Positions 6,965 through 24,895 of a stretch of 64,000 nucleotides of DNA are shown here, piece after piece (the first letter of the stretch is position 1; every line of letters begins with the position of its first letter). The stretch spans positions 99,496 to 163,495 of the forward strand of contig JADKJW010000009.1 of assembly GCA_016720835.1 (NCBI GenBank). Reading direction: 5' to 3'. A program made the translations under genes and the position numbers. A model generated the notes under the pieces. The model worked only from the letters and a program-made list of their open reading frames with translations, was not told the DNA's origin and made no database searches. This DNA comes from Ignavibacteria bacterium. Its GTDB lineage: Bacteria > Bacteroidota > Ignavibacteria > SZUA-365.

Positions 6965-9349
6965 CTAGTGGAAGCGGATGCCCTTCGAATTCTGATCGCC
7001 CTTCCGCCTTTTCGCACCGCCCTGCGAATGCTTCGATATCGGCATTAACACGAAGAGTTTGTCATCCTTGAAGCGATCCTGCAATTCGTCGATGAGCGAT
7101 GTCAACCCGTTCGGACCCTCGGGCCTTTCGATGACTTCCACACCATCGTCGTCCGGCGTGTCGTCCGTCCCGGACTCCCTGCCGTCGGACGCAGGCGAGG
7201 CATACAGCGCGTAATCCGGCGCTCTGGTCTCCTCTGCACCGTTCGCTCGCACCGCGGCAGCGATCTCGCGTTTGAGCATCGAGAACAGGTCCTCTTCTAT
7301 CTCGGCGCGCAATTTCGTTTTGAGCGCGTCAAACATGCCCTGCTCGGCTTCCGGCGGGGTCGATACGGTCTTCCGCGGAGCGGAGGCTTGGAGCGCGTCC
7401 CTGACTGCCTGAGCATTCTGCCGGGAGGGTGGCTGAGGCGTCGCAGCCTGCACGTGATGCACGTCCTGCAGCAGTTTCATCTCCAGCTCCTTCTTCAGCT
7501 GCACTTCCAGCTGCCGTCGCATCAGCGTTTCCGCTTCCTCCCGTTCTTTCCGTTCTTCCTCGACGGCGTTCCGCAGTTCGGACAGCTGCCGCACTTTCTG
7601 TTCCGCCCTCTCCCGCGCCTCCAATTCCGTGTTGAGGATGGACTTCAATTCGGAAACCTCGCCTGCCTGTTTTTCCATGCGCTGGCGGAGTTGACGCTCC
7701 TCTTCAAGACGCGCGCGATCTTCGGTTTCGAGGCGCGCTTTCCGTTTGTTTTCCTCGCTGGCGCGCCGGATATCCTCCAGCGCCTTCACCCGCTCCATTT
7801 CCTGCTGCACGCGCAGGCGGACTTCCTCGGCGGCCTCGCGCCGCGCCTCGTCGATCTTGCTTTCCGCCTCTTTGCGGACCCTGCCGACCTCTTCCTTGAA
7901 GCGGAGGTGATACTCCTCCTTGAGACGCTGTTGCCGCTCCCCGTGTTCGCGCGACAGCTCCGACGACCGTTTATTCGCTTCCTCTTCCATGCGAAGCCTT
8001 GCCTGAAGCTCCTCGCGGCGCTTGGCATCCGCCTCCAATGCGACCTGCCGTTCCTTCTCCAGCAGAAGCCGCAGTTTTTGGATCTCCTCCTGCTGCTGCC
8101 GGAGCAACGAATCCACATCCTCGCCACGGGGACTGGTCTGCACCGGCGGCGCTGCGACGGCGTGCGACGCTTTGGCAGGGGCGGGCGTTTCCGTGCCCGG
8201 CGCAGGGTTCGAAACTGCGGACGCAGCGGATTCGTCTTTCAGGAGATCATCCACGAACGTCAACGTGTCGCCGGTACTCACCACATTCAGCGTCTCCGGC
8301 GAAACAGCGGCCTGACGCACCGGCGCTTTTTCCAGCTCTGGCTTTGGGAGTTCGAGAAGGGCCGCGAGAACAACCTCAGGCTGACGTTCGGGCACGACGG
8401 GAATCCGGGGTACGGCGATTTTTGCCGGATCGCTCAACGCCGTCGCGCCCGCGGGAATGACCCGTTCCCTTGCGCTCCTGGCTTGTGCCGTCACCAGGGA
8501 GGCGGAAGCGAGAAGAGTGCGAATGCGGCTCTCCAGTTCGTTCGCGGTCGGTCGATGCTGCGGTTCCCGGTCCAGGCAATCGAGCACGAGACGAAGGAAT
8601 TCATCGGAGTAGGCGCCGACAAGTGAGGCGGGGGCGATCATCTCATCGACGATCGCGCTTCCCCCCCGGCCTTCCCATGGAGGCATGCCGGAAGCAAGTT
8701 CGTAAAAAAGGACTCCGAGGGAGAATATATCGTCCGTCGGAGCGCCGGATATCCGCACGAATCGTTCCGGCGACGCATATTTTTTATGAATGATGTTGTG
8801 CGGGCCGCGCACCAGGCCGAGGACATTTCGAACGATCCTGTTGATGCCAAAATCGGATATCAGCACGCTTCCATTCTGCGCGACAAACAAATTCTCCGGC
8901 ACAATATCGAGATGAACGAAGGAACTCTTGTGCAGGAACACCACGCCCTTCACGACGCGGAGAAACAGGTCGAGAAGTTTGCCTTCATCCCTCCGGAGCT
9001 GCGTATCGCGAACGGTCATGACGGAGCGCAGCGAGTTCCCTTCAACGAGAGGCAAAACGAGGAATGTCTTTTTTCCGGCGAGCCCGAGCGAGATCGGTGT
9101 GACGAGGTTCGCATTCTGTACGGTCAACGACGAGAATTCCCGCTGAAGGAGATGGAAAATCGACGTCTCAATCTCCTTTTCCGTTTCGAAGAACTTGAGC
9201 ACGCACGGGCGCTCGGCATCACCGGTTTTGTCCGCCTTCCAGACTGCCGTAGACGGGCCGTTCCCGATGGGATCAACGAGCCGGTACCGTCCGTCGATCA
9301 GCAGGCCGGACTGTAATTGCTCTTGATGTATTTCTGAAGCGTTGCTCAT
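6965..9349 (-). CDS. Atypical Hanks-type Ser/Thr kinase-like protein with a long E/R/K-rich helical region and acidic tail (paralogue 1)
   Basis: Kinase subdomains are present: VLKF (VAIK Lys), LLQREF (alphaC Glu), HLDIVPEN (catalytic loop), SDFG, YASPE, DDIFSLGVLFYEL and HRPT. About 200 aa of E/R/K/Q-rich sequence follow. Start could be 9370 or 9349. Confidence 0.8.
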   Translation of the reverse strand: MSNASEIHQEQLQSGLLIDGRYRLVDPIGNGPSTAVWKADKTGDAERPCVLKFFETEKEIETSIFHLLQREFSSLTVQNANLVTPISLGLAGKKTFLVLPLVEGNSLRSVMTVRDTQLRRDEGKLLDLFLRVVKGVVFLHKSSFVHLDIVPENLFVAQNGSVLISDFGINRIVRNVLGLVRGPHNIIHKKYASPERFVRISGAPTDDIFSLGVLFYELASGMPPWEGRGGSAIVDEMIAPASLVGAYSDEFLRLVLDCLDREPQHRPTANELESRIRTLLASASLVTAQARSARERVIPAGATALSDPAKIAVPRIPVVPERQPEVVLAALLELPKPELEKAPVRQAAVSPETLNVVSTGDTLTFVDDLLKDESAASAVSNPAPGTETPAPAKASHAVAAPPVQTSPRGEDVDSLLRQQQEEIQKLRLLLEKERQVALEADAKRREELQARLRMEEEANKRSSELSREHGERQQRLKEEYHLRFKEEVGRVRKEAESKIDEARREAAEEVRLRVQQEMERVKALEDIRRASEENKRKARLETEDRARLEEERQLRQRMEKQAGEVSELKSILNTELEARERAEQKVRQLSELRNAVEEERKEREEAETLMRRQLEVQLKKELEMKLLQDVHHVQAATPQPPSRQNAQAVRDALQASAPRKTVSTPPEAEQGMFDALKTKLRAEIEEDLFSMLKREIAAAVRANGAEETRAPDYALYASPASDGRESGTDDTPDDDGVEVIERPEGPNGLTSLIDELQDRFKDDKLFVLMPISKHSQGGAKRRKGDQNSKGIRFH

Positions 9350-9452
9350 CACGGTCCCAATGATAGCCAATACGTTTTTTCATCAATTTTCGTACCACGT
9401 CACGAACCCTGAATTTTCGCAGGAAACGGCAAACGCCACTGCATGTCATTAC

Positions 9453-9487
9453 AGAAACTGCATAACGGTACAATTTTTGCAGTTTCT
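9453..9487. repeat. 10-bp perfect inverted repeat in the spacer between the OmpA-like gene and kinase paralogue 1
   Basis: AGAAACTGCA (9453-9462) and TGCAGTTTCT (9478-9487) are separated by a 15-nt A/T-rich loop. No flanking U-run on the minus strand. Confidence 0.5.
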
Positions 9488-9561
9488 CAAAACGCCCAAT
9501 CCTTGTGTTTTCTGTATGAATCTCGATGGACTGTCTGGACGGAATCAGTACAGACTGCGGT

Positions 9562-11961
9562 TCAGCGGACCCAGATTTCGACCCTCCTGTTTTTGTTTCT
9601 GCCTCCATCATCCTTTTCATCTGCAACCGGCATGATGGCTCCCATCCCGAGTGCGGAATGCGCCTTGATGCCGGTTTCCTTGAGCCTGGCTTTGACCATC
9701 TGCGCCAGAGTGCGGGATGCGAGTATCTCCGTTTCCCTGGCGCCCATGCGATCACATATCCCGACCACGAGGAGTTCCCTCGCGTTCGTGATGTCCGAGA
9801 ACATCTTCAGGCGGCGGATGTCATCGAACGCAAGCGCGTCGAGTTCCGATGCCCCGGGTCGCAAGCGCAGACTCGCGATGACGCGCTTCGCGCCCTTCGT
9901 CGCGGCGACGTACTCGGCAGGCGCCGTTCGATCGGCGGTGCGTCCTGAAAGCCGGAGCGAGAGATCCGCGTAGCCATGCGCGGCGGTGATGTTCTGCCCG
10001 TTCACGCCCATCGCAAAATCAATGAAGCTCCGGGGATTGACCGCCGTGGCGGGAGAAACGTAGAGGCAGAGTCGCGCGGTCAGCGGATACGACTCCAGCC
10101 TGATCGCGTCCACCGACGGGGCGACCGGATCGCCCGGGGCGTCGATCACCGGAAGCACTCGCGCATTCCCGCGATCCGCGAAGCGCACGAAGCCGAGAGC
10201 CCGTGGATCGGCCGCGACCCGGGCGAGCACCTCCGCCGTGCCGTTGCACTGCTGGGCGCGGGGGGAGATCTCGTCTCCGGGTCCGAGCAGCGCGAGCAGT
10301 GATGCGTTCGCGAGAGACGTGTCGCCGGCGAGGACGAGTCGCAGCGGTGCGCGGGCCCCGCCGAGCATGGCCCAATCCGTCGCGACGCCGGTCAGCGCCG
10401 CGATGGCGTCGCTCCGGCGGATGGCGCGAAGCGAATTTCGGGGATGCACAACGACGCAGATGCCGTCGAGCGCGAGCACATGCTGTGTCGGGAAGAACGC
10501 GGGAGTGGATCGGAGCGCGCCCGCATCCGACGCGGAGAGCGTCGAAGCGACGAAGCAGTCCGCCGCTGGATCGGTGTCCGATGCGTAGACGTCGCGCACT
10601 CGTGCAACGCGGATTTCCACCCGTTTCACGGTATCGCCGACGCTTCGTCCCGCGATGGCGAAGGCATTCCCGTCACCACGCTCGAGCCGCGCCTCGCGGA
10701 TACCCTCGGATGCCATCCACGCCGACACGATATCCTGGACAAGCGGCAGATGCTCCTCCGTCGTCTGGATGCGCATCAGCGTGAATCCTGTCGACATATC
10801 CGAGCTTCTTCCGAAGATGAACCATCCCACGGCGGCGAGCACGGCCGCAACGAGCACGACGCGTATTCCCGTCTGCCAGAATTTGCTGTCGAACACGTTC
10901 GCATTGGGAACGTCGTCGCGCAGCGATGTGATGGTTCGGAGTTCTTCGGCTTCACTGTTTTCCCTGTCGGCGGATTCCTGCACGGGCTCGCGACGGATTT
11001 TACGCTCCGCTCGCGACGCTTCCCGCTGTGCCATCTCCGCGAAGACGGCTTCGCCCTGGGCCTCGGCATGAAAGCTGTCGAGCAATGTTTGCAGGTCGAG
11101 ATCGACGCCGGCATTCAGGTGCGCGGGAGGGACGGGAGGCGTGTCGGACGGCTCGAGCACCGGCGCCTGTTCCTGCACCGGCAGCGCCGGGAGATCAACT
11201 CCGTCGAGCCCGTTCGCGACGAGCGCGCGGAGATCCTCCTCGACGAGCACCACATCGGCTCGTTCCGTCTGCTCGCGTGCGATGCGCTCGGCTTCGGCGC
11301 GAATCCGTTGTTCCGCCTCCTCGCGTTCGCGTTCCTCGCGTTCGGCGCGCAGTTTCCGTTCCGCATCTTCGCGTGCGCGCCGTTCCGCGTCATCGCGCGC
11401 TGCGCGCTCCGACAGCTCGCGCTCCAATTGCGCGATGCGATCGCGCGCGAGAAGTTCCGCCTGCTCGCGGGCGCGGCGTTCGGCCTCGATGACGGTGCGC
11501 TGTTCGGCCTCGTTCTTCACCTTCTCGAGTTCGGACCGGAAGGCGGACTCGAGCTGTGTTCTCAGCCGTGTCTCGATATCCTCGCGGAGCCGCCGTTCGT
11601 GTTCTTCGCGGGCGGCGCGTTCCGCTTCTTCGCGCGCGCGGCGTTCCGACTCCTCGCGGGAGCGGCGTTCTTCTTCCTCGTTGCGGCGGCGTTCGAGGGC
11701 CGCGTAAATACGTCGTTCCGCCTCTTCATGCGCGATGCGGTCGGCCTGCTCGCGAACGCGCCGTTCCGTCTCTTCGCGCTCTCGAAGTTCGTCGTCCTCG
11801 CGCTGTCTGCGCTCGTGTTCTTCACGGACCTGCCGTTCCGTGTTCTCGCGTTCCCTGCGCTCCCCTTCTTCGCGGAGTTCGCGCTCGGCCTTTTCGCGCG
11901 CGAGACGTTCCGTTTCTTCGCGGAGTTCGCGCTCGGCCTTTTCGCGCGCGAGACGTTCCAT
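9562..11961 (-). CDS. E/R/K-repeat + TM + PstS-like substrate-binding fold + OmpA_C peptidoglycan-binding protein; probably the C-terminal part of a larger interrupted gene
   Basis: TM helix VVLVAAVLAAVGWFIF. ALDGICVVVHPRNSL...GVATDWAMLGG...ESYPLTARLCLYV matches the PBP_like_2/PstS pattern. C-terminus ...ARLKETGI...GRNKNRRVEIWVR matches OmpA_C. The annotated Met lies inside a repeat unit. Confidence 0.8.
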   Translation of the reverse strand: MERLAREKAERELREETERLAREKAERELREEGERRERENTERQVREEHERRQREDDELREREETERRVREQADRIAHEEAERRIYAALERRRNEEEERRSREESERRAREEAERAAREEHERRLREDIETRLRTQLESAFRSELEKVKNEAEQRTVIEAERRAREQAELLARDRIAQLERELSERAARDDAERRAREDAERKLRAEREEREREEAEQRIRAEAERIAREQTERADVVLVEEDLRALVANGLDGVDLPALPVQEQAPVLEPSDTPPVPPAHLNAGVDLDLQTLLDSFHAEAQGEAVFAEMAQREASRAERKIRREPVQESADRENSEAEELRTITSLRDDVPNANVFDSKFWQTGIRVVLVAAVLAAVGWFIFGRSSDMSTGFTLMRIQTTEEHLPLVQDIVSAWMASEGIREARLERGDGNAFAIAGRSVGDTVKRVEIRVARVRDVYASDTDPAADCFVASTLSASDAGALRSTPAFFPTQHVLALDGICVVVHPRNSLRAIRRSDAIAALTGVATDWAMLGGARAPLRLVLAGDTSLANASLLALLGPGDEISPRAQQCNGTAEVLARVAADPRALGFVRFADRGNARVLPVIDAPGDPVAPSVDAIRLESYPLTARLCLYVSPATAVNPRSFIDFAMGVNGQNITAAHGYADLSLRLSGRTADRTAPAEYVAATKGAKRVIASLRLRPGASELDALAFDDIRRLKMFSDITNARELLVVGICDRMGARETEILASRTLAQMVKARLKETGIKAHSALGMGAIMPVADEKDDGGRNKNRRVEIWVR

Positions 11962-12330
11962 CTCTTCGCGGAGTTCGCGCTCGGCCTTTCGCGGGCGAGA
12001 CGTTCCGTTTCTTCGCGCAGTTCGCGCTCGGCCTTTTCGCGCGCGAGACGTTCCGTTTCTTCGCGCAGTTCGCGCTCGGCCTTTTCGCGGGCCAGACGTT
12101 CCATCTCTTCGTGGAGTTCGCGCTCGGCCTTTTCGCGGGCGAGGCGTTCCATCTCTTCGCGGAGTTCGCGTTCGGCCTTTTCGCGGGCGAGGCGTTCCAT
12201 CTCTTCGCGGAGTTCGCGTTCGGCCTTTTCGCGCGCGAGGCGTTCCATCTCTTCGCGGAGTTCGCGTTCGGCCTTTTCGCGCGCGAGGCGTTCCATCTCT
12301 TCGCGGAGTTCGCGTTCGGCCTTTTCGCGT
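11866..12330 (-). repeat. 48-bp coding tandem repeat, family A (~9.7 units, 16-aa unit REKAERELREEMERLA)
   Basis: Unit ttcgcggagttcgcgctcggccttttcgcgcgcgagacgttccgtttc repeats head-to-tail with only a few substitutions per unit. Confidence 0.95.
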
Positions 12331-12870
12331 AGAGTGCGATCGCTTGCCTCCCGGACTTCCCGCCCGGCTTTTTCGCTGGCGATGCGTTCCGCTTCCTCGC
12401 GGATCTTTTTCTCCGCCTCTTCGCGCGCACGTTTCCGCGTGTCGCGGTGGGTCCGTTTCTCGATCGGCTCACGCGACTTCGATTTCGCTTCCAGGCGTGA
12501 GAGTCTGCGCGCTTCCTCAGCAGCGAGCTGCACCGCCTCGTCGCGCGCCTTCCGATCCGCCTCCTCGCGGAGTTTCCGTTCGGCCTCCACACGAGCTTTC
12601 CGCTCCGCCTCTTCGTCTGCCTTGCGGTCAGCCTCTTGCAGGAGTTCGCGTTCGCGATCTCTCTGAGCATTTTGCTCTGCTTCTTCACGAATCCTGAGCC
12701 GCACCGCCTCACGGGCCTTGGACTCCGCTTCTTCACGAGCCTTGCGCTCCGCTTCTTCGCGAGCCTTGCGCTCCGCTTCTTCGCGAGCCTTGCGCTCCAT
12801 TTCCTCGCGAGCCTTGCGCTCCGCTTCTTCGCGAGCCTTGCGCTCCATTTCTTCACGGGCTTGGCGCTCC
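11990..12870 (-). pseudogene. Central E/R/K segment of the interrupted kinase-OmpA reading frame, with no start codon of its own
   Basis: It reads ...AERQAREEMERKAREE...EAVRLRIREEAEQNAQRDRERELLQEADRKADEE...REKAERELREEMERLA... in a third minus frame (part of track ORF 11562..13577). It is bounded by an 8-nt gap at 12861-12876 and a 1-nt homopolymer loss at 11987-11989. Confidence 0.55.
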
Positions 12871-13420
12871 GCGAGCCTTGCGCTCCATTTCCTCGCGAGC
12901 CTTGCGCTCCGCTTCTTCCCGAGCCTTGCGCTCCGCTTCTTCGCGAGCCTTGCGCTCCATTTCCTCGCGAACCTTGCGCTCCATTTCCTCGCGAGCCTTG
13001 CGCTCCATTTCCTCGCGAGCCTTGCGCTCCGCTTCTTCGCGAGCCTTGCGCTCCATTTCTTCACGGGCTTGGCGCTCCGCTTCTTCGCGAGCCTTGCGCT
13101 CCATTTCTTCACGGGCTTGGCGCTCCGCTTCTTCGCGAGCCTTGCGCTCCATTTCTTCCCGGGCTTGGCGCTCCGCTTCTTCGCGAGCCTTGCGCTCCAT
13201 TTCTTCACGGGCTTGGCGCTCCGCTTCTTCGCGAGCCTTGCGCTCCATTTCTTCACGGGCTTGGCGCTCCGCTTCTTCGCGAGCCTTGCGCTCCGCTTCT
13301 TCGCGAGCCTTGCGCTCCATTTCTTCACGGGCTTGGCGCTCCGCTTCTTCGCGAGCGTTGCGATCCGCTTCTTCGCGAGCCTTGCGCTCCGCTTCTTCGC
13401 GAGCCTTGCGCTCCTCTTCC
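12711..13420 (-). repeat. 48-bp (24+24) coding tandem repeat, family B (~15 units, EEAERQAREEMERKAR)
   Basis: Unit cttgcgctccatttcttcacgggcttggcgctccgcttcttcgcgagc repeats almost perfectly. The 24-nt half-units alternate between the EEMERKAR and EEAER(K/Q)AR versions. Confidence 0.95.
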
Positions 13421-14928
13421 TGGCGTGTTCTGAGTTCCACCTCTTCGCGTGCGCGTTGTCCGGCACGTTCATTCGCCACGCGTTCGGTTTCAAGCAGTTT
13501 CGACTCGGTTTCCTTGCGGATGCGTTCGAGTTCGCTATGCAGCCGTGTATCCAGTTCGTGCTGCAGTTTCTTCTCAAAGTCCTCGCGGAGGCGCTTTTCC
13601 GACTCCTCGCGCGCCTTTCGGTCCAATTCCTCCCGTTCCTTGCGATCGCGTTCTTCGCGACGCCTTCGCTCGGCTTCTTCCTGCTGGCGCCGCGCCGTCA
13701 TCTCCTTCGAGAGCTTGTCACGCTCGGTGCGAAGGACGCGTTCCGCTTCTTCACGGGCGTGCTGCTCCGCCTCCAGGCGCATATTCTGTTCCGCTTCTTC
13801 GCGTGCTTTCTGATCGTCCGCTTTCGCAAGGAGGGCATTGTCTTCCAATGCCTTCCTGCCGCCATCCTCCATGAGTGGAATGTAATCCGCGAGTGTTTTG
13901 GCCTGTTTCGTTCCCTTATGATGGACTTTTTTATCCATCGCCTCCTTGATCTTCGCATCTGCTGCATCGCGGGCGCGTTTCTGCGCTTCCTCGCGCACAA
14001 GGGCGGCTTCGTGAAGCTTCAGGCGATCCTCTTCCGCCTCAGCCAGCTTCCGTTTCTTCTCCGCCTTCGTGGCACGGATTTCTTCCACCGAGACAGGATG
14101 ATACGACACAGCCCATTTCTCGATATCCGCCGATGTAGGACGATGGTCGGGCGATTTCTGAAGACACCACGCAACGAGGGAAGTGAATTCTTCGGAGAAC
14201 GATTCGTCGAGTTCCGGCGTCGCCGCATTCTCGAGGAGCGCCTTCCCTCCCTGTCCGTCCCACGGGAGCTTCCCCATGGCGAGTTCGTACAGCAGGACAC
14301 CGATCGAGAAGACATCGTCGGCGGGATTGGCTGAACGGGCGGTGAAGCGTTCCGGCGACGCATACGGAATGTGAAAAATCCGGTTCGGTCCGACGTTGTG
14401 CGAAAGCGTATTGTGGAGAATGCGGCTGATGCCGAAATCGGAGAGCAGGGGAACACCACCATCACCGAGGAGCACGTTCTCCGGCGCAATATCCTGATGC
14501 ACAAAGGAATTCTTGTGCAGGAAGGACAATCCTGCCACCATCTGGCCGAGCAGTTGAACAATGCGCTGCTCGTTCAACGGCCTGCTGGTCTTCGCCGCCC
14601 TGATCACGTTCCTCAGAGAACCATGTTCGACAAACGGCCCGAGCAGATACGTCATTGTTCCCATCACGGAGAAACTCGTCGGCATCAACAGATTGGGATG
14701 CTTCACCGTCATCGAAAGGAATTCGTTCGTCAAGAGCTGGACGATGACGGGATCGAGTTCCTTCTCCGATTCAAAAAGCTTCAAGGCATGGATATGACCG
14801 CCCTTCTTGGTGTCCTCCACCCGCCACACCTGCGTGTGAATGCCGCCTTCGACGCGTTTCAACAGCTTGTAGCGGTTCGCGAAGAGGGATCCCGTCTTTA
14901 TTTCCATTGTTGCTTCTGTCATAATCAT
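12853..14928 (-). CDS. Atypical Hanks-type kinase-like protein with E/R/K repeat tail (paralogue 2); the ORF ends at a frame break inside the repeat
   Basis: HALKLF, LLTNEF, HQDIAPEN, SDFG, YASPE, DDVFSIGVLLYEL and HRPT, followed by a charged helix and family B repeats. The track ORF starts at TTG 14958. ATG 14928 (MIMTEATMEIK) is preferred by alignment with paralogue 1. Confidence 0.8.
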   Translation of the reverse strand: MIMTEATMEIKTGSLFANRYKLLKRVEGGIHTQVWRVEDTKKGGHIHALKLFESEKELDPVIVQLLTNEFLSMTVKHPNLLMPTSFSVMGTMTYLLGPFVEHGSLRNVIRAAKTSRPLNEQRIVQLLGQMVAGLSFLHKNSFVHQDIAPENVLLGDGGVPLLSDFGISRILHNTLSHNVGPNRIFHIPYASPERFTARSANPADDVFSIGVLLYELAMGKLPWDGQGGKALLENAATPELDESFSEEFTSLVAWCLQKSPDHRPTSADIEKWAVSYHPVSVEEIRATKAEKKRKLAEAEEDRLKLHEAALVREEAQKRARDAADAKIKEAMDKKVHHKGTKQAKTLADYIPLMEDGGRKALEDNALLAKADDQKAREEAEQNMRLEAEQHAREEAERVLRTERDKLSKEMTARRQQEEAERRRREERDRKEREELDRKAREESEKRLREDFEKKLQHELDTRLHSELERIRKETESKLLETERVANERAGQRAREEVELRTRQEEERKAREEAERKAREEADRNAREEAERQAREEMERKAREEAERKAREEAERQAREEMERKAREEAERQAREEMERKAREEAERQAREEMERKAREEAERQAREEMERKAREEAERQAREEMERKAREEAERKAREEMERKAREEMERKVREEMERKAREEAERKAREEAERKAREEMERKARGAPSP

Positions 14929-15258
14929 CAGTGTCTCACTGCAATTTCTCTGCCACAAGTGAGTCTAAAAAGAAACTTCGATAATTGGGGCGATTCATTT
15001 ATCCGACCATGCAATTATTGCAATTTGTTCCAAATTCTGCTCAGTTACGGGCAGGACTCGCAACCGGCGGTCGAGATCAGTTTCGGGAGCCCCACGATCA
15101 ATCGGCGTGATACTTCGAACTCGGGGGCTCCCGGATTCAGCTCCATCGCCTTGCATTTCAGGACCAACCTTTCTAGTTTGAGCGATCGAGAAGCAGTGAA
15201 TGCACTCCTCTTCTCCCTCGCATCTCCCAACATCCCGAAACGATACAGCGTAGAGTCT

Positions 15259-17320: not shown

Positions 17321-19459
17321 ATGAATCGTGTTGCATCCATTTCGATCCTGATCGTCGCCATCCTGGCATTGACGGTCCCGGGCGCGACCGCACAGATCCG
17401 TTCCGACACCCTCACCATCAGGCAGATCCAGGAAGTGCCCCTCGACTCGCTCAACGCGGGCAAGCAGAATTCCCCCGCGCTCGGTGACACCGTGACGGTG
17501 ACCGGCACCGTCATCGCCGCCCCGCGGGTGAGCCCCGGCGGTCCGATGCTCTTCGCGCTCAGCAACGCCGCGACGCTGTACATCGTGGACGAAGCGGGCG
17601 GGATCTGGAGCGGCCTCAACGTCCGCGCGACGGATACCGTTGCTTCATCGAGCACGCTCATCACCGCCGTCGACACGGGCTTCGTGGTGCGTTTCACCGG
17701 TGTCGTGACGCAGTACTTCACGACGACGCAGTTCGAAGTCGGCAAGATCGCGTCATGGAATGCGGACAAACAGGTGGAAATTCTCGACACGAAACTGCGC
17801 CGGCCGCAGCCGAACACCATCACGCTCGCGGATCTGGTGAAGGGCGATCCGAAAACCGGCATCCCTCTCGCGCAGCAGTGGGAAGGCGGCTACGTCGTCA
17901 TCAACAATCTCACGGTCGGAACCGTCACCAAGAACACGTCCACCGGCCGATACACCTGGACGGTTGCCGACGCGAACGGCAACTCCATCGGCGTGTACGA
18001 TCAGAGCAAGTATTTCCGCGGCGGCACGGACGCCATCGATCCGGCGTGGACGCCGCCGTCGCCCGGCACCGCGATACAGGCCATCCGTGGCATCATCACG
18101 AGTTCGGGCCAGGGCATCGTGATCGCGCCGATCTACCCCGGCGACATCCTCGTGGGCTCCTTCCCTCCGACGATCAGCAAGGTCGGGCGCACGCTCGGCA
18201 TCCCGAAGAGCAGCGAAAGCGTCAGCGTGAGCGCGACGATCGAAACCGGCCGTCCGGGCGGAACGATCAGTGAAGCGAAACTCGTGTACGGCATCGGCGC
18301 GGCGACCTCGGGCACGCTGGACATGGCCTACGACAGCGCCAGCAAGATCGGGACCGCCGTCATACCTCCGCTTCCGGACGGCGCCGTGGTGTGGTACTAT
18401 ATCACCGCCAGGGACAACTCGAACGAGAACGCCCAGTTCCCCGCCGACATCAGCAAGGCGCGGCCGTTCTACATCGTGCGCGACGGCAATGCGCGTATCC
18501 GCGACATCCAGTACACCCCGTACAGCGACGGCGTCCCGGGTTCGCTCGGCTTCACCGCCACCACGCGCGGCACCGTCACGGCGGCTGCGGATTCCACCTC
18601 CCTCGGCCTCGTCTTCATCCAGGACGACACGCAGCCGTGGAGCGGCATGATGGTGCGCGGCGACGCCAACGTCCGCGGCCTCAAGCTCGGCGATGACGTG
18701 ACGGTGATCGGCAAGGTTGCCGAAGGCTACAGCTCCTCGTCCAACGGCAACACGCTCCTGCTGGACGCGGCCATCGTGCAGAAGAACGGCAGCGCGGCGG
18801 TCCCGGCGCCGATCGCCCTGACGACCGGCGGATTCAAGACGGAATCCGTTACCGACGGCACGCCGTCGGCCGAGCAGTGGGAAGGCATGCTGGTGACGTT
18901 CTCGACGCTCAACGTGACCAAGAGCAACGCGGACGAGGCCACCGGCGGACGCTTCGGCGAGTTTCTCGTCAACGACGGCAGCGGCGACATGCGCGTGGAC
19001 GATTTCGGATCGTGGAAGACCGTCTACACGACGGACAGCCTCAAGACCAGCCTTCTCTACCTGAAAAAGGGCACCACCATCAGTTCGCTGACCGGCATCA
19101 TGTACTTCAACTTCGGCAACTACAAGCTCCAGCCGCGCAACGCGGGCGACTTCGGAAGCGTGACAGACGTGGCCACCACCCCGGGAACGCCCACGGGCTT
19201 CGCATTGCGGTCCGTGTACCCCAATCCGGCGACACTCGTGGGCGGCGCGGCCATCGTCTTTGACGTGCCCGAGCTTTCGCAGGTGCGCGTGGACGTGGTC
19301 GACGCGCTGGGTCGGCTCATCGCGACGCCCGCGACGGGCAGCTTCGCACCAGGATCGCATACCGCGCGCTTCGCGGCGCCGGGACGGGCGAGCGGCGTCT
19401 ACTTTGTGCGACTCCACGCGGGGAACGTCACGCTGACGCAGAAGCTGATCATTCACTGA
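17321..19459 (+). CDS. Secreted multi-module protein with T9SS C-terminal sorting domain
   Basis: GGAGA RBS 8 nt upstream. Signal peptide MNRVASISILIVAILALTVPGATAQ. C-terminus LRSVYPNPA...VFDVPELSQVRVDVVDALGRLI...GVYFVRLHAGNVTLTQKLIIH is a Por_Secre_tail pattern. Confidence 0.8.
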   Translation: MNRVASISILIVAILALTVPGATAQIRSDTLTIRQIQEVPLDSLNAGKQNSPALGDTVTVTGTVIAAPRVSPGGPMLFALSNAATLYIVDEAGGIWSGLNVRATDTVASSSTLITAVDTGFVVRFTGVVTQYFTTTQFEVGKIASWNADKQVEILDTKLRRPQPNTITLADLVKGDPKTGIPLAQQWEGGYVVINNLTVGTVTKNTSTGRYTWTVADANGNSIGVYDQSKYFRGGTDAIDPAWTPPSPGTAIQAIRGIITSSGQGIVIAPIYPGDILVGSFPPTISKVGRTLGIPKSSESVSVSATIETGRPGGTISEAKLVYGIGAATSGTLDMAYDSASKIGTAVIPPLPDGAVVWYYITARDNSNENAQFPADISKARPFYIVRDGNARIRDIQYTPYSDGVPGSLGFTATTRGTVTAAADSTSLGLVFIQDDTQPWSGMMVRGDANVRGLKLGDDVTVIGKVAEGYSSSSNGNTLLLDAAIVQKNGSAAVPAPIALTTGGFKTESVTDGTPSAEQWEGMLVTFSTLNVTKSNADEATGGRFGEFLVNDGSGDMRVDDFGSWKTVYTTDSLKTSLLYLKKGTTISSLTGIMYFNFGNYKLQPRNAGDFGSVTDVATTPGTPTGFALRSVYPNPATLVGGAAIVFDVPELSQVRVDVVDALGRLIATPATGSFAPGSHTARFAAPGRASGVYFVRLHAGNVTLTQKLIIH

Positions 19460-19473
19460 TCCCATCCTCGCGG

Positions 19474-19519
19474 GCGGGGAGCCGGGCGCACGCCCCGCTC
19501 CCCGCTTCGCGATTTTTTT
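19474..19519 (+). terminator. Rho-independent terminator
   Basis: GCGGGGAGC (19474-19482) pairs with GCTCCCCGC (19497-19505). A T7 run follows at 19513-19519. Confidence 0.65.
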
Positions 19520-19545
19520 CCCTCGACCTGACGGAGGATTCCCGC

Positions 19546-20076
19546 GTGAAGGCATTGCTGATTCTCTTCCTGATCCTTGGCACCGGCGTTGCCGGCGGCG
19601 GATGCGGCACGTGCAAGGACAGCGCCGCGAACGACGCGGGCGGAACACCCTTCATCATCGACCTTTCCAGCGGCGGGGGGTTTTCCGGCATGCACAGCGG
19701 GTTCACCATCAAATCGGATGGGAGTGTCCTGTACTGGCAGGGCATGTACGGCCGCAGGGAAGATGTGCGTCCGCTCGGATCGATGGATGCCGGCGAGATC
19801 CGTCGACTCAAGGCGCTGATCGACGAGCAGAAGCTCGCGTCGGTCCGGCACCGCGAGACCGGAAACATGACCACCTCCCTCAGCGTCGCCGAGGGAGAGC
19901 TGTTGTACACCATTTCCTGGCCGGGAATGACCGAGGATGCGTCCGACATTCCCGAGGCCGTACGGCCCGTGCACGCGGAATTGCAGCGGCTCCTGGCGTC
20001 CTTTCAGGAGAAGGCGATGAAAGAGCAGCAGAATGGCGGCCGGCGCGATCCGGTCTCTCCGCCCAAGGACAGGTAG
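19546..20076 (+). CDS. Small exported protein or lipoprotein upstream of the M4 protease; possible protease-inhibitor-like
   Basis: GTG start with GGAGGA 8 nt upstream. Leader MKALLILFLILGTGVAGGGC. No catalytic motifs. Contains an SSGGGFSG...SDGSV motif. Confidence 0.6.
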   Translation: MKALLILFLILGTGVAGGGCGTCKDSAANDAGGTPFIIDLSSGGGFSGMHSGFTIKSDGSVLYWQGMYGRREDVRPLGSMDAGEIRRLKALIDEQKLASVRHRETGNMTTSLSVAEGELLYTISWPGMTEDASDIPEAVRPVHAELQRLLASFQEKAMKEQQNGGRRDPVSPPKDR

Positions 20077-20153
20077 ATTCCCTGCACGTCCTTCGCCGCT
20101 CGCGGCGGCCGGAGCCTGACACACCCCACACGAGCATCCTTTTGGAGGCCTTC

Positions 20154-23100
20154 ATGCATACACTGATCCTGTCCCGCATCTCGAGAGTCGCGCAACGCGT
20201 GGCGTATCGTTCCGGAATCCTGCTGGCGCTGCTCGCCGTACTTCCGCTTGCGTCTGCCTTCGCGCAGGGCAACGGAAAAACCGCGTTCAAACAGCACGTG
20301 ATCGAAAGGCATCGCGACTTCACGGGCGCCGTCTCCGCCGAGAAGATCGCCGCGGTCGGCCGGACGTTTCAACGATGGGAGCAGAGCAATGCCGTGCTCG
20401 AACGGCGGCGGGAGTTGCGCGCGCAGCCAGGACTGACCATCGATCAGATTCTCGCCTACGACGAACTCGCCTCGCGCGTCACCGGATTCCATGTCGTGTG
20501 GGACGAAACGCACACCGTCCCGATATACATCGCGGGATTGCCGCTCTGCACGGGCGGTCAGAACGCCGCCTCGTCCGATGAAGCGGCAACGCTTCAACGA
20601 TTTTTCGCGTTGTACGGTCCCCTCCTCCGCATCGCGGACGGGACGCGCGAATTTCGCGTCACCGAACGCATCGTTTCGGAGGATGGCTCGTCGCATCTGC
20701 GTCTCGCGCAATACCGCGACGACATTCCCGTGTGGGAATCGCAGATCGTCCTGCAGGCCGACGCGCGCGGAAACGTGAGGCTCTTCATGGGCCGGTATAT
20801 TCCGACACCGGCATCTGATATCAACGCGTTCCCCGCCACGGGCGACCGTGAGGCGCTTGCGCTGTTCGCGAAATCCATCGGTCGACCGTTACCCCCATCC
20901 GGTGCATCGTCCGACCCGCTGTTCGAGGCTCCGGCGCCGTTCGCCGGGCGCGTGTGGTACGCGCCGTCGCCCCGCGTGCCGGCGCGCGCGGCCTACGCCG
21001 TCGAAATGCATCCGTCGCTCACGGAGCGCTGGCGCGGCGTGGTGGATGCGGCTTCGGGCGCGGTGCTGCGCTCGTACAACGCCGTCTGCAGCGACGGGCC
21101 GGAGAAGGCGTCCGCGAAGGATCTGAACAACGTGACGCGCAGCATCGACACCTATCTCAGCGGAGGCCGCTACTACATGATCGACGCGTCGCGGCCGATG
21201 TTCGATCCGGCGCGATCGACCATGCCCAGGGATCCCGCGGGCGGCATCGTCACCCTGGACGCGCGCAACACGGATCTGTCCAGCGTCGTGTACGTCACGT
21301 CCGCCGACAACACCTGGACCATCCCCGCCACCGTCTCCGCGCATTACAACGCCGCGGTGACCTACGAGTACTTCCGCGCGACGCACGGGCGCAGCGGCAT
21401 CGACGGCAACGGCGCGACCATCCTCTCCATCGTGAACGCCACGGAATCCGGCCAGGCGATGGAGAACGCGTACTGGAACGGGCGTTTCATGGTGTACGGC
21501 AACGGCGGCTCGCTGTTCAAGCCGTTCGCCGGTTCGCTCGACGTCGGCGCGCACGAGATGACGCACGGCGTGACGGAGCATTCCGCGGGCCTCCTCTACC
21601 TCAATCAGTCCGGCGCGCTGAACGAGGCGTTCTCCGACATCTTCGGCGCGATGGTGGACCGCGACGACTGGAAGCTGGGCGAGGACATCGTCATCGGCAC
21701 CGCGACCTTCCCCACCGGCGCGATGCGCGACCTGTCGGACCCGCACAACGGCACGAGCGCGGGCAGTCCGGCCTGGCAACCCAACCACATGCGCGAGTTC
21801 CAGGCGCTCCCGGAGAGTCAGGACAACGGCGGCGTGCACATCAACAGCGGCATTCCGAATCACGCCGCCTACCTGCTGTCGACCGCGATCACGCGGGAGA
21901 AGGCCGAGAGAATCCTCTACCGCGCGCTGACGACGAAGCTCACCACGCAATCGCAGTTCATCGATTTCCGCCTCGCGCTCGTGCGCAGCGCCGAAGAGCT
22001 GTACGGCGCGGGCGGCGCCGAGGTCGCGGCCTGCAAGAGCGCCTGCGACCAGGTCGGCATCACCGACGGCAACGGCACCAAGGATCCGCCGGATCTGCCG
22101 CCGGTCAACGCCGCGGATCGACTGCTCTTCGTCAGCACCGACGTGACCGATCCCTTTTTCCTGTGGACCGTGAATCCGCCCGCCGGACCGAGCGATTTCG
22201 CGGCGCTCTCGAAAACCGTGATCTTCGGCCGTCCCAGCGTGTCCGACGACGGCAGCATCGCGGTGTTCATCGACGGCGCGGGCGCCCTGCGCAGCATCGC
22301 GTTGAATCCCTCCGCGCCGAACGAGCAGGTGCTCGACACCAGCGCCGTCTGGGGTTCGGTCGCCCTCAGCCGCGACAAGCGCCTGATCGCGTTGACCACC
22401 TTTGCCGCGGAACCCGCCATCTACCTCTTCGATCTGGGCGGCCCCGTCGTCCTCGGAAAGCAGTTCGAGATCTACGCGCCCACGTACTCGGGCGGCAAGA
22501 TGTCCGACGTGGCGCAATTCGCCGACGCGATGGATTTCAGTGCGGACGGCGAGCGGCTGCTCTTCGACACCTACAATGAAGTGGACATCGCCGGCGAGAA
22601 AATCGGCTATTGGGAAATCAACCTCCTGGAGGCTTGGGACAAGGGGGGCAACACGTTCGGCTCCGGCGCGATCTACCGCATCTTCCCGCAGGAGACCGGA
22701 TACGATCTCGGAAATCCGAGCTTCGCGCGCACGAAACAGACCGTCTTCGCCTTCGACGTCTCCGATTCATACAGCTTGAGCGGATACGTGCTCGCGAGCG
22801 ACCTGTTGAAGGACGGCGCATCGCTGATCGCGGAGCTGCCGTACAATTCGCCCGGGTACCCGAACTACCGCGGGGACGACCGCGTCATCTCCTTCGCGGC
22901 GACGCCGCTGCACGGCGGCAACGGGGTGGACTCGGTGTACAACGTGCCGCTTGCCGCAGACGCCCTGACGCCCGCCGGTCCGCCCGCCGGGTTCATCCCC
23001 TCCGCGATGTTTCCCATCTGGTACCGCAACGGCGTACGGCCAACCGGTATCGCGCAACCATCCACCGTCCCGGCATCGTTGCAGCTGGCGCAGAATTACC

Positions 23101-23360
23101 CGAACCCCTTCGGCGCCGGCGCCGCATCCACCACCATCGCGTACGCATTGCCCGACACCCGCGACGTGCTGCTGACCGTGCATGACGCGATGGGGCGCAC
23201 CGTCAAGGTGCTTGCGCGTGGGCACGGCAACGCCGGGACGCACGCAGCCGTCTGGAACGGCACCGACGAACGCGGTCGCTCCTGCCCTGCCGGCGTGTAT
23301 CTGTGCAGGCTCGTCGCAGGCAGCCACACGGCCACCAGGACCATGCTGCTCGTCAAATGA
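20154..23360 (+). CDS. M4 (thermolysin-like) zinc metalloprotease fused to a beta-propeller-like region and a T9SS sorting domain
   Basis: GGAGG RBS. Signal peptide ...LLALLAVLPLASAFAQ. Propeptide-like region, then VGAHEMTHGV (HExxH) plus GALNEAFSDIFG (third zinc ligand Glu) and GGVHINSGIPNHA. About 400 aa follow with TolB/PD40-like strands. C-terminus NYPNPFG...LLTVHDAMGRTV...GVYLCRLVAGSHTATRTMLLVK. Confidence 0.9.
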   Translation: MHTLILSRISRVAQRVAYRSGILLALLAVLPLASAFAQGNGKTAFKQHVIERHRDFTGAVSAEKIAAVGRTFQRWEQSNAVLERRRELRAQPGLTIDQILAYDELASRVTGFHVVWDETHTVPIYIAGLPLCTGGQNAASSDEAATLQRFFALYGPLLRIADGTREFRVTERIVSEDGSSHLRLAQYRDDIPVWESQIVLQADARGNVRLFMGRYIPTPASDINAFPATGDREALALFAKSIGRPLPPSGASSDPLFEAPAPFAGRVWYAPSPRVPARAAYAVEMHPSLTERWRGVVDAASGAVLRSYNAVCSDGPEKASAKDLNNVTRSIDTYLSGGRYYMIDASRPMFDPARSTMPRDPAGGIVTLDARNTDLSSVVYVTSADNTWTIPATVSAHYNAAVTYEYFRATHGRSGIDGNGATILSIVNATESGQAMENAYWNGRFMVYGNGGSLFKPFAGSLDVGAHEMTHGVTEHSAGLLYLNQSGALNEAFSDIFGAMVDRDDWKLGEDIVIGTATFPTGAMRDLSDPHNGTSAGSPAWQPNHMREFQALPESQDNGGVHINSGIPNHAAYLLSTAITREKAERILYRALTTKLTTQSQFIDFRLALVRSAEELYGAGGAEVAACKSACDQVGITDGNGTKDPPDLPPVNAADRLLFVSTDVTDPFFLWTVNPPAGPSDFAALSKTVIFGRPSVSDDGSIAVFIDGAGALRSIALNPSAPNEQVLDTSAVWGSVALSRDKRLIALTTFAAEPAIYLFDLGGPVVLGKQFEIYAPTYSGGKMSDVAQFADAMDFSADGERLLFDTYNEVDIAGEKIGYWEINLLEAWDKGGNTFGSGAIYRIFPQETGYDLGNPSFARTKQTVFAFDVSDSYSLSGYVLASDLLKDGASLIAELPYNSPGYPNYRGDDRVISFAATPLHGGNGVDSVYNVPLAADALTPAGPPAGFIPSAMFPIWYRNGVRPTGIAQPSTVPASLQLAQNYPNPFGAGAASTTIAYALPDTRDVLLTVHDAMGRTVKVLARGHGNAGTHAAVWNGTDERGRSCPAGVYLCRLVAGSHTATRTMLLVK

Positions 23361-24895
23361 CGACGCGCATCCGCATACCGCATCCGGAATTTCGCGGCAG
23401 ACGCGCATTCCTGTGGCGCCTCCCGCTCCTTGCCGTGCTGGCGTTCGCCGCCTGCTGTGCGGGCGCCTGTTCCGACGCGCCCAGCGGCGCCGGGCACGGG
23501 AATCTCGCGCCGGAGACGCATCTCGCGCTGCTGCCCGACTCCGCCCTCCGCACCACGACAAGCAGGCAGCACATGCACTGGTGGGGCGATGATCCCGACG
23601 GCTTCGTCGCGGGGTACTTCTTCAGCTTTGACGGCGTGACGTGGACCTTCACCACGAAAACCGACAGCATCTTTTCGCTCACCCTCCGGGGCACGGACAC
23701 CACCTACCACTTTGCCGTACGCGCCGTCGATACGCAGGGCAACGGCGTGCACGACGCGAACGGACCGTACGGCGCGGAACCGTTCACCGACGCCAACGGC
23801 AACGGCCGTCACGATGCGGGCGAGGCATTCACCGACTTCGGTCTGTGGGATCCCACACCCGCGACGCTGGGCTATCCCATCACCAACACCCCTCCGGTGG
23901 TCGCGTTCGTCAAGGGATCCGATGTCCCGGAAAGCACGTTCACGGTCGCCTCCTTCACCTGGGTCGGCACCGACCTGGACGGCGATGAAAGCATCGCCGA
24001 ATACCGGTACGCGCTGAACGACACCGCCAGCGCCACGGCATGGAAGCGCCTGCCCCGCGCGCAGACCTTCCTCACGCTCACCGCGAAGGACGGGATCATT
24101 TCGGGCAACAACGTCTTTTATCTGAGAGCCGTCGATATCGCGGGGGCGGAAAGCAGAACCATCCGCATGCCCGCGGAAGGCGGCACCTGGCACGTCCGCA
24201 TCCCGAAAACGGACCTCCTCATCGTGGACGATTACGGTCCGACGGACGACACGCCCGCCTTCTATCGTGGCATCGTCGACACGCTGCTCGGCGGGCGCTT
24301 CCGCGGCGCGGATGTCTTCGACATCAAGGCGGGCGCCTCGTCCACCTCGAAAGGCCGCTTCGTCCCGCCCTTCGTCAATCCGACCTTCACCGAAACGCTC
24401 AAGCTGTTCACGCACGTGCTCTGGTACTGCGACAACAATCCGACCATCGACGTGGCGCAGATCTCGCTCGCGCCCTATCAGCAGAGCGGCGGCCATGTGC
24501 TGTACACCGCGTCCTTCCCCGAAAGCGCGCTCGATCCGCGCGGAGGCATCACCGATTACGCTCCGGTGGACAGCCTCACGCCGCAGTCGATCACGTTTGT
24601 CCCCGCGAACACCCGCCTCGAAGCGCACGCGGAATCGCCGGGCTATCCCGTGCTCACGCGCGACACGAAGGGCACGCCCGTCGCCTTCATCCGCGGATTA
24701 TACCGCAAGATCAACGCCGCGAACATGTACGTGCTCGGCGCCGATCCGCGCTGGAGCGGCAATCCCGTCGTCGCCGTGCGCAGCGGCGACCGCCGCTTCG
24801 TCATGTTCGCCATTCCGCTGCACCGTTTCGACGGCGCGGGCAACGCGGGCGCGGTGATCCGGCAGGTGTTCGAACAGGAATTCGGAGTGCGATGA
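23357..24895 (+). CDS. Hypothetical lipoprotein, first gene of the coupled outer-membrane block
   Basis: ATG 23357 overlaps the protease TGA (ATGA). Leader RLPLLAVLAFAACCAGAC|S. DANGNGRHDAGE Ca-loop-like motif. No known catalytic motif. Confidence 0.65.
   Translation: MTTRIRIPHPEFRGRRAFLWRLPLLAVLAFAACCAGACSDAPSGAGHGNLAPETHLALLPDSALRTTTSRQHMHWWGDDPDGFVAGYFFSFDGVTWTFTTKTDSIFSLTLRGTDTTYHFAVRAVDTQGNGVHDANGPYGAEPFTDANGNGRHDAGEAFTDFGLWDPTPATLGYPITNTPPVVAFVKGSDVPESTFTVASFTWVGTDLDGDESIAEYRYALNDTASATAWKRLPRAQTFLTLTAKDGIISGNNVFYLRAVDIAGAESRTIRMPAEGGTWHVRIPKTDLLIVDDYGPTDDTPAFYRGIVDTLLGGRFRGADVFDIKAGASSTSKGRFVPPFVNPTFTETLKLFTHVLWYCDNNPTIDVAQISLAPYQQSGGHVLYTASFPESALDPRGGITDYAPVDSLTPQSITFVPANTRLEAHAESPGYPVLTRDTKGTPVAFIRGLYRKINAANMYVLGADPRWSGNPVVAVRSGDRRFVMFAIPLHRFDGAGNAGAVIRQVFEQEFGVR

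Follow-up and report, generated by a model that had tools for sequence, protein, structure and literature searches.

The minus strand of one 64-kb window (the whole stretch analysed here, 64,000 nucleotides of contig JADKJW010000009.1, positions 99,496 to 163,495, in the Ignavibacteria bacterium assembly GCA_016720835.1) carries three consecutive coding stretches for a kinase-like head, a very long charged region and a putative periplasmic module, and the question this locus raises is whether they are separate genes or one gene interrupted by small deletions. The three stretches derive from a single gene, and we give a probability of roughly 0.6 to the reading that its product is a receptor-type Hanks kinase-like protein of a rare clade, that the breaks are secondary, and that the region dominated by Glu, Arg and Lys (ER/K) would serve as a tether. 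The clade has so far been found in Bacteroidota-like organisms with genes of the type IX secretion system (T9SS).

Once two deletions are undone, the minus strand reads from 14907 to 9562 as one gene of 1,784 codons and a stop. The outer open reading frames (ORFs), namely ORF1 (12853-14958, minus strand, 701 amino acids (aa)) and ORF3 (9562-11961, minus strand, 799 aa), share a genomic frame (frame 0) that is closed only between codons 701 and 829, and the stretch between them is a portion of a further minus-strand ORF (11562-13577) coding for EEAERKAR and EKAERELREEMERLAR units as in the flanking ORFs. Because identical peptide repeats (EEAERKAR/EEMERKAR and EKAERELREEMERLAR, which are read in all three stretches) appear in different frames across each break, the breaks are not due to chance and indels are the only explanation. 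At break 1 the plus strand carries a single TTGGCGCTCCGCGAGC, a unit of 16 nucleotides (nt), whereas the 24-nt sister unit TTGGCGCTCCGCTTCTTCGCGAGC is found in six exact copies, so that GAAGAAGC is absent from the coding strand between 12871 and 12870, the exact position being ambiguous owing to a 2-nt GC microhomology. At break 2 a single CGCGAAAGGCCGA stands against nine copies of CGCGAAAAGGCCGA, which on the coding strand turns GAAAAGGCC into GAAAGGCC. Restoring the 9 nt lost in total gives a single open frame of 1,801 codons from a TTG at 14958; the ATG at 14907 is the likely true start, since it agrees with the starts of the orthologues (MDIKAG and MFEVKSG). The original prediction had joined the three stretches into one frame of about 1,790 codons broken by two small indels, and this holds: the repaired frame is open and aligns end to end with the syntenic orthologue described below. 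A compensated pair of frameshifts was ruled out by the frame 0 stops, one of them 5 codons past break 1 and six more in the middle stretch, and phase variation by the nature of the lesions, as an A4 run and the loss of 8 nt from part of a unit are atypical of contingency tracts. In DNA that codes for ER/K, several reading frames of either strand stay open, as in the plus-strand ORFs 10444-12666 and 12718-14334 of the window.

Relatives with the same architecture in one frame carry much of the argument. A word-based protein search with the C-terminal part returned four distant relatives, whereas HMMER, run exhaustively with the last 452 residues, revealed the family, with 3,700 representatives at E<=1e-3. 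Among the best 150 of these C-terminal relatives, 27 have an N-terminal kinase in the same polypeptide (Pfam-confirmed for six), mostly with short linkers. Two of the 27, the more distant proteins P0103 (1,546 aa) and P0116 (1,359 aa; identical in two independent assemblies), combine kinase, ER/K, transmembrane (TM), PstS-like and OmpA-like parts in one uninterrupted frame; their heads match that of the window at E values of 4e-68 and 5e-59, their linkers of 770-870 aa contain 51-55% E/R/K, and they end in KNRRVE[IM]WIR. Orthologues with an unbroken frame, which the original prediction had named as a check, thus exist.

The best C-terminal match, P0060, belongs to a locus (L006, GCA_964388275.1) that is syntenic with the window, sharing a T9SS-tail gene, a 673-aa gene, glutamate dehydrogenase (GDH), lactamase_B, a GT2 glycosyltransferase and an ATP-binding cassette (ABC) transporter. 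The repaired window protein aligns with it over residues 19-1800 against 3-1782 (42.7% identity, 1229 bits). L006 is open from 7082 to 12433 save for a 100-N scaffold gap within the ER/K repeats; neither the 2.4 kb ahead of this gap nor the 2.8 kb beyond it contains a frame break or stop, and the gap, a placeholder, is itself uninformative. In a Bacteroidota metagenome-assembled genome (GCA_029907355.1) one contig stops within the ER/K part of the head (P0007), and the frame of the tail (P0068) is open to the end of another contig, reads AREEAERKAR and is followed by GDH and lactamase_B. A further head (P0006 of locus L001, 60% identity) likewise enters an ER/K array. On these sequences, the single-gene state is the norm and the ER/K array the place where assemblies fail. 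Tandem DNA coding for ER/K confounds assembly programs and gene callers alike, so that members of the family are systematically fragmented in databases. Public gene calls in L006 (7025-9238 and 10001-12436) are wrong: two antisense ORFs are placed across the ER/K repeats, and of the ~1,784 codons just the final 811 are called. In L001, P0006 has an in-frame TAA in place of a sister GAA at ~7473-7475, 155 nt from the contig end, after which the frame is open.

The kinase-like head that had been predicted has a clear match to the Pfam Pkinase family PF00069 (E=9.3e-34, 117.4 bits, cut-off 31.7), and its best solved relatives are StkP, PknA and Abl; no NCBIfam equivalog model was passed and no equivalog-level name resulted. 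Aligned to StkP, the head presents the core residues in HALK (beta3 Lys), NEF (alphaC Glu), HQD, PEN, DFG and SPE. Its assignment as a Hanks-type kinase is borne out by profile and core residues and qualified by the catalytic loop, where, relative to canonical HRDxKxxN, the Asp and Asn are kept but the HRD Arg and the catalytic-loop Lys are replaced. The Gly loop is degenerate as well (VEGGIHTQV instead of GxGxxG), and these departures recur throughout the clade. A loop of the form HQDI[AVCS]P[EG]N is common to P0006, P0007, L006 and P0103. In P0116 (locus L004, 4659-8738) it reads HLGIKPSN and the catalytic Asp is lost; this protein, and thus at least one member of the clade, is probably a pseudokinase.

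The charged region that follows carries the hallmarks of an ER/K single alpha-helix, not of a coiled coil, and would be expected to behave as one. The ER/K motif is a semi-rigid spacer. The region consists of 31.5% E, 24% R, 14.5% A and 6.5% K with 1 Pro and 3 Gly, and has 0.51 opposite-charge i/i+4 pairs per residue versus 0.16-0.25 at other spacings. A coiled coil is not favoured, given 11% hydrophobic residues with a period of 4.0, not 3.5. AlphaFold2 modelled the 291-residue middle piece as two long uninterrupted helices (residues 2-128 and 141-290) with a predicted local distance difference test score (pLDDT) of 91. Charged segments free of Pro and Gly sum to ~904 residues, the longest being 333; reckoned at 0.15 nm per residue, this corresponds to ~130 nm of helix split over several rods. 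At the DNA level, the window and L006 contain arrays of 24- and 48-nt units, which are young, whereas in P0103 and P0116 this composition persists in DNA that has no strong repeats; it is therefore selected at the protein level.

A Kyte-Doolittle scan of the protein detected no second TM segment and no hydrophobic N-terminal signal. Because there is one TM segment and no signal peptide, the kinase and the charged region are placed in the cytoplasm, and only the PstS-like and OmpA-like parts (~450 residues) in the periplasm, which makes the predicted topology, with the N-terminus inside and the C-terminus outside, coherent. The acidic segment preceding the membrane is probably disordered and cytoplasmic. 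An AlphaFold2 model of the C-terminal 452 residues, built with a 59-sequence alignment, reached a pLDDT of 89 and a predicted template modelling score (pTM) of 0.85, with the TM helix at residues 13-36. The PstS-like part, which had also been anticipated, has the type II periplasmic-binding fold and exceeds its Pfam threshold; the model matches 1twy_B in Foldseek (E=6.6e-16, TM-score 0.84), and the family profile matches PstS structures at E=7e-44. For the OmpA-like domain, the fold (Foldseek TM-scores of 0.65 to 6jfw and 0.70 to the C domain of Rv0899) and the family profile (YiaD, OprF and PA0833 at ~1e-20) agree with the assignment. The window sequence alone scores 21.5 bits against Pfam OmpA PF00691, below the cut-off of 27.2, a threshold that the close relatives P0060 (34.8 bits) and P0116 (46.3 bits) pass.

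Ligand-binding functions of the two periplasmic folds, which the original prediction had described as a PstS-like binding domain and a peptidoglycan anchor, fare less well than the folds themselves. The phosphate-binding motifs of the window (RIQTTEE, VARVRDVY and LAGDTSLANAS) differ from the canonical GSNTVG, GSATAF and ARDDKSGTYDTF, and the motifs GSNT, GSxTAF and RDxxSGT are equally degenerate in L006, P0103, P0116 and P0068; phosphate binding by the clade is unlikely. In OmpA-like domains the D...N..LS..RA residues hold the diaminopimelate moiety of peptidoglycan. Of the residues in register in the window, the Asp is kept, the Asn is replaced by Glu and the canonical Arg by Leu (GICDRMGARETEILASRTLAQMV versus VGYTDSTGSRQHNMDLSQRRAQSV of 6jfw), and in P0103 and P0116 the Asp is also absent.

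Several points weigh against the reading of this locus as one functional receptor-type protein. As assembled, the window has no uninterrupted frame for all modules owing to the two breaks, and the full protein is not encoded. Kinase activity is doubtful, as HRD has become HQD, the catalytic-loop Lys is missing and the Gly loop is degenerate. Since the residues of both ligand sites, for phosphate and for peptidoglycan, are unconserved in the clade, sensing and anchoring roles are proposed from the fold only; together with the degenerate catalytic motifs, this makes a scaffold or pseudokinase role possible. Lastly, the charged segments of the linker range from 533 to 904 residues across orthologues, which counts against a precise ruler, and because the length varies in this way we regard the linker as a long tether and not as an exact ruler.

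Among the closest known systems, receptor-type bacterial Hanks Ser/Thr kinases of the PknB/StkP/PrkC class have an N-terminal cytoplasmic kinase, a single TM segment and a C-terminal extracytoplasmic module related to the wall. Here, however, the ectodomain is PstS-like plus OmpA-like instead of PASTA, the catalytic loop is HQDIAPEN without the HRD Arg or the catalytic-loop Lys, and the juxtamembrane ER/K linker has ~1,000 residues as against tens of residues; this giant linker is the distinguishing mark among receptor-type Hanks kinases. Uncharacterised proteins of 750-940 aa with the order Pkinase-TM-PBP_like_2-OmpA (such as P0063, P0070 and P0079) share the domain order and a homologous C-terminal module (E 1e-42 to 1e-45), whereas their linkers are of 110-420 aa and uncharged (10-22% E/R/K), their kinase heads are distant from that of the window (E 1e-5 to 1e-18), and they keep the canonical GSNT, GSxTAF and RDDKSGT; P0063 at least also keeps the canonical OmpA D...N..LS..RA motif, unlike the window. 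Stand-alone PstS-like/OmpA-like fusions of 450-530 aa (P0002-P0005) have a homologous periplasmic module with a signal peptide or anchor and canonical ligand motifs, but no kinase or ER/K region, and the module occurs widely, Pseudomonas, Acidobacteriota and Myxococcales being among the groups that have it. With eukaryotic ER/K single alpha-helices (myosin VI/X, caldesmon and a Trichomonas Kelch-motif protein) the charged region shares the dominance of E, R and K, the i/i+4 charges, the lack of a heptad seam and the prediction of an uninterrupted helix. It differs in being bacterial, in lying between a kinase and a TM anchor, in being Arg-rich rather than Lys-rich, and in a total length 4-5 times that of the longest myosin single alpha-helix (~200 residues or 30 nm; PMC5378345).

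The architecture had been thought to be without precedent, which is not the case: P0103 and P0116 carry the ER/K form, and a shorter form is common among the C-terminal relatives, being that of the 27 kinase-bearing proteins counted above. Intact homologues are already public as unnamed proteins; none was found to be characterised, and a literature search found no paper on this architecture or on giant bacterial ER/K helices.

The repaired protein runs from a kinase-like head with a non-RD, Lys-less loop through ~860-900 residues of ER/K and an acidic Pro-rich segment of ~130 residues to the TM helix, the PstS-like and the OmpA-like domains. We propose that the C-terminal module would fix the protein at the inner membrane and the cell wall, and that it may also detect some non-phosphate ligand in the envelope. 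The ER/K region could act as a semi-flexible single alpha-helix tether that holds the kinase head up to ~130 nm into the cytoplasm, thereby setting its site of action and the frequency with which it meets membrane-proximal partners. The deletions would in this proposal be recent slippage lesions, variants of a hypermutable repeat, or artefacts of assembly or sequencing. A bolder version, which we offer tentatively and would not ourselves bet on, is that a small Bacteroidota-like clade makes a membrane- and wall-anchored kinase or pseudokinase whose head sits on an ER/K single helix of >100 nm, several times longer than any described, and that this cytoplasmic tether sets signalling reach (for example to the nucleoid or to distant partners such as the adjacent small ER/K kinase paralogue described below) and is tuned in length by rapid repeat expansion and contraction. 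Should it prove to be a true single alpha-helix, the region would exceed every other natural example by a wide margin and be the first to lie between the head of a bacterial receptor kinase and the anchor in the membrane. The dependence of signalling reach on tether length could then be examined in a natural setting, in a cell only some ten times as wide as the tether is long.

As to whether both deletions are true lesions or artefacts, we put the odds near even. Intact copies occur in related uncultured bacteria, and the breaks are therefore read as recent damage or assembly error and not as a designed feature. Neither the contig itself nor a near-identical strain, against which the indels could be checked, was found by exact-protein look-up or by a peptide scan of genome contigs, and in clade-alignment scans of metagenome and genome contigs no relative exceeded 36% identity. 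Across the 64 kb, exact direct repeats reach a maximum of 127 nt (13024-13150 versus 13168-13294, offset 144 = 3 x 48), a maximum that hints at the footprint expected from a k=127 de Bruijn short-read assembly; copy number in the ER/K array may have been collapsed, in which case the true linker would be longer. The exact match flanking break 1 is just 92 nt, with the 2-nt microhomology, and a false de Bruijn join was ruled out on these grounds as the origin of the 8-nt loss. A third frame break lies near 50,790-50,800 in a non-repetitive GAF-PAS-PAS-REC gene (51798 to 50045, minus strand), where a PAS domain is divided over a pair of overlapping ORFs that differ in frame; joining them at ILHHDAA|RHAFLFSIPRGE raises the PAS_4 score from 20.2 to 33.1 bits (profile positions 7-105). 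No additional frame switch turned up in a systematic scan of the window, and the rest of the genes examined seem intact; like the exclusion of a false join, this counts towards real lesions. The third break and the 127-nt longest repeat point in opposite directions.

One alternative is that the breaks are purely technical, that is, consensus or assembly errors in a repeat array, and that the organism makes the full 1,784-aa protein; we rate this at somewhat less than an even chance. Both breaks fall inside tandem arrays where other assemblies fail, break 2 is a change in homopolymer length, and the third frame break within 64 kb fits general indel noise. The downstream coding sequence is all intact (the 799 codons keep all six family-invariant residues and a confident fold), and orthologues have the same architecture in one frame. 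Set against this, the intactness of the other genes examined implies a low overall indel rate, artefactual indels are rare in the short-read de Bruijn assembly at which the 127-nt maximum hints, and an 8-nt deletion is atypical as a base-calling error.

Alternatively, the deletions may be real and fixed, a serious contender to which we nonetheless give rather less than half the weight of belief; the locus would then be a recently inactivated pseudogene, or have come apart functionally into a 684-aa soluble kinase that bears an ER/K tail and a remainder that is untranslated or separately translated. Tandem repeats are slippage hot spots, and further indels would be neutral once a first lesion was present. 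A 127-nt longest repeat fits a k=127 de Bruijn assembly in which every junction is read-supported, the third frame break could mean that the genome contains several pseudogenes, and the truncated ORF1 product is laid out like the neighbouring 801-aa paralogue. The in-frame TAA of L001, in the corresponding array, also speaks for real lesions. On the other side, that TAA is 155 nt from a contig end, and related assemblies break or have gaps exactly in the ER/K array, which marks it as the least reliable part of any assembly. Moreover, the middle 291 and downstream 799 codons are undecayed, so any lesion would be very recent; an A4-to-A3 change is a classic homopolymer miscall, and a metagenome contig can join minority variants.

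Very improbable is the role assigned to the long helix by the original prediction, a TolA-like periplasmic ruler spanning the envelope from kinase to peptidoglycan anchor. In composition and length the region does superficially resemble TolA domain II, and the protein does link the cytoplasm, the inner membrane and a wall-proximal OmpA-like domain; TolA, too, combines a single TM segment, a long charged helical domain and a globular C-terminal domain. However, the TolA helix is periplasmic and C-terminal to its TM segment, whereas here the ER/K region is contiguous with the kinase, N-terminal to the sole TM segment and preceded by no signal peptide, and hence on the cytoplasmic side. The periplasmic portion, PstS-like plus OmpA-like, comprises just ~450 residues, the linker length is unconserved among orthologues, no homology to TolA was detected and the partner logic is unlike. 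Least credible of all is a design in which three genes are initiated separately or the ribosome makes programmed frameshifts. ORF3 does open with an ATG at 11961, and ORF1 alone resembles the small paralogues. However, this ATG merely encodes the Met within one repeat unit (EEMERLAREK), the middle piece lacks a start, sister units identify the breaks as deletions that neither the syntenic orthologue nor the distant homologues carry, and there is no slippery-site or structure logic, one break being an 8-nt loss.

Table 1. Coordinates of the frame-broken kinase-like gene, its parts and other features of the window
Feature	Position	Strand	Details
Whole inferred gene	9562..14907	-	likely start ATG 14907 (MEIKTGSLFANRYKL), protein begins MEIKTG
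Hanks-type protein kinase domain	14122..14808	-	N-terminal, cytoplasmic; residues 51-279 of ORF 12853-14958
Atypical catalytic loop HQDIAPEN	14476..14499	-	from alignment to StkP VHRDLKPQN
ER/K charged helical region	11254..13818	-	857 residues after repair; residues 381-1237 of the 1,801-codon product
Tandem DNA array, 24-nt unit	12715..13419		29.7 copies; EEAERKAR-type units; break 1 inside
Break 1	12861..12876	-	8-nt deletion, junction 12871/12870; frame shift, then ORF1 stop at 12853-12855
Middle stretch	11990..12870	-	~293 codons; open in second frame only; no start of its own; ER/K repeats
Break 2	11987..11989	-	A3 run versus A4 in nine sister units; reading returns to the ORF1 frame
Tandem DNA array, 48-nt unit	11867..12329		9.7 copies, 95% matches; EKAERELREEMERLAR units; break 2 inside
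Acidic Pro-rich juxtamembrane segment	10867..11253	-	~128 residues, net charge -15
Transmembrane segment IRVVLVAAVLAAVGWFIFG	10810..10866	-	sole predicted TM segment; Kyte-Doolittle window >=1.6
PstS-like (PBP_like_2) two-lobed fold	9949..10785	-	Pfam 30.8 bits (cut-off 27)
OmpA-like domain	9565..9885	-	C-terminal, ends in KNRRVEIWVR
Adjacent paralogue, 801 aa	6965..9370	-	kinase domain (HLDIVPEN); ER/K segments of ~190 residues in all; lacks TM segment and periplasmic module
T9SS C-terminal sorting-domain protein	17321-19459	+	
M4 thermolysin-like peptidase	19602-23360	+	C-terminal FlgD_ig domain
TonB-dependent receptor	within ORF 24040-27780	+	first domain from ~25,000
PorV-like protein	ends at 28925	+	

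Regarding the genes around the locus, a small kinase plus ER/K paralogue without a TM segment adjoins the big gene in the window, in L006 and in L001, lying downstream of it in the window and upstream in L006 (4701-6899) and L001 (3471-5621), and this paralogue may be a partner of the big protein. Elsewhere in the window, the plus strand from 17321 to 28925 contains a cluster of envelope and secretion genes (Table 1), which places the organism among the T9SS-bearing bacteria of the Bacteroidota or the wider Fibrobacteres-Chlorobi-Bacteroidetes (FCB) group.

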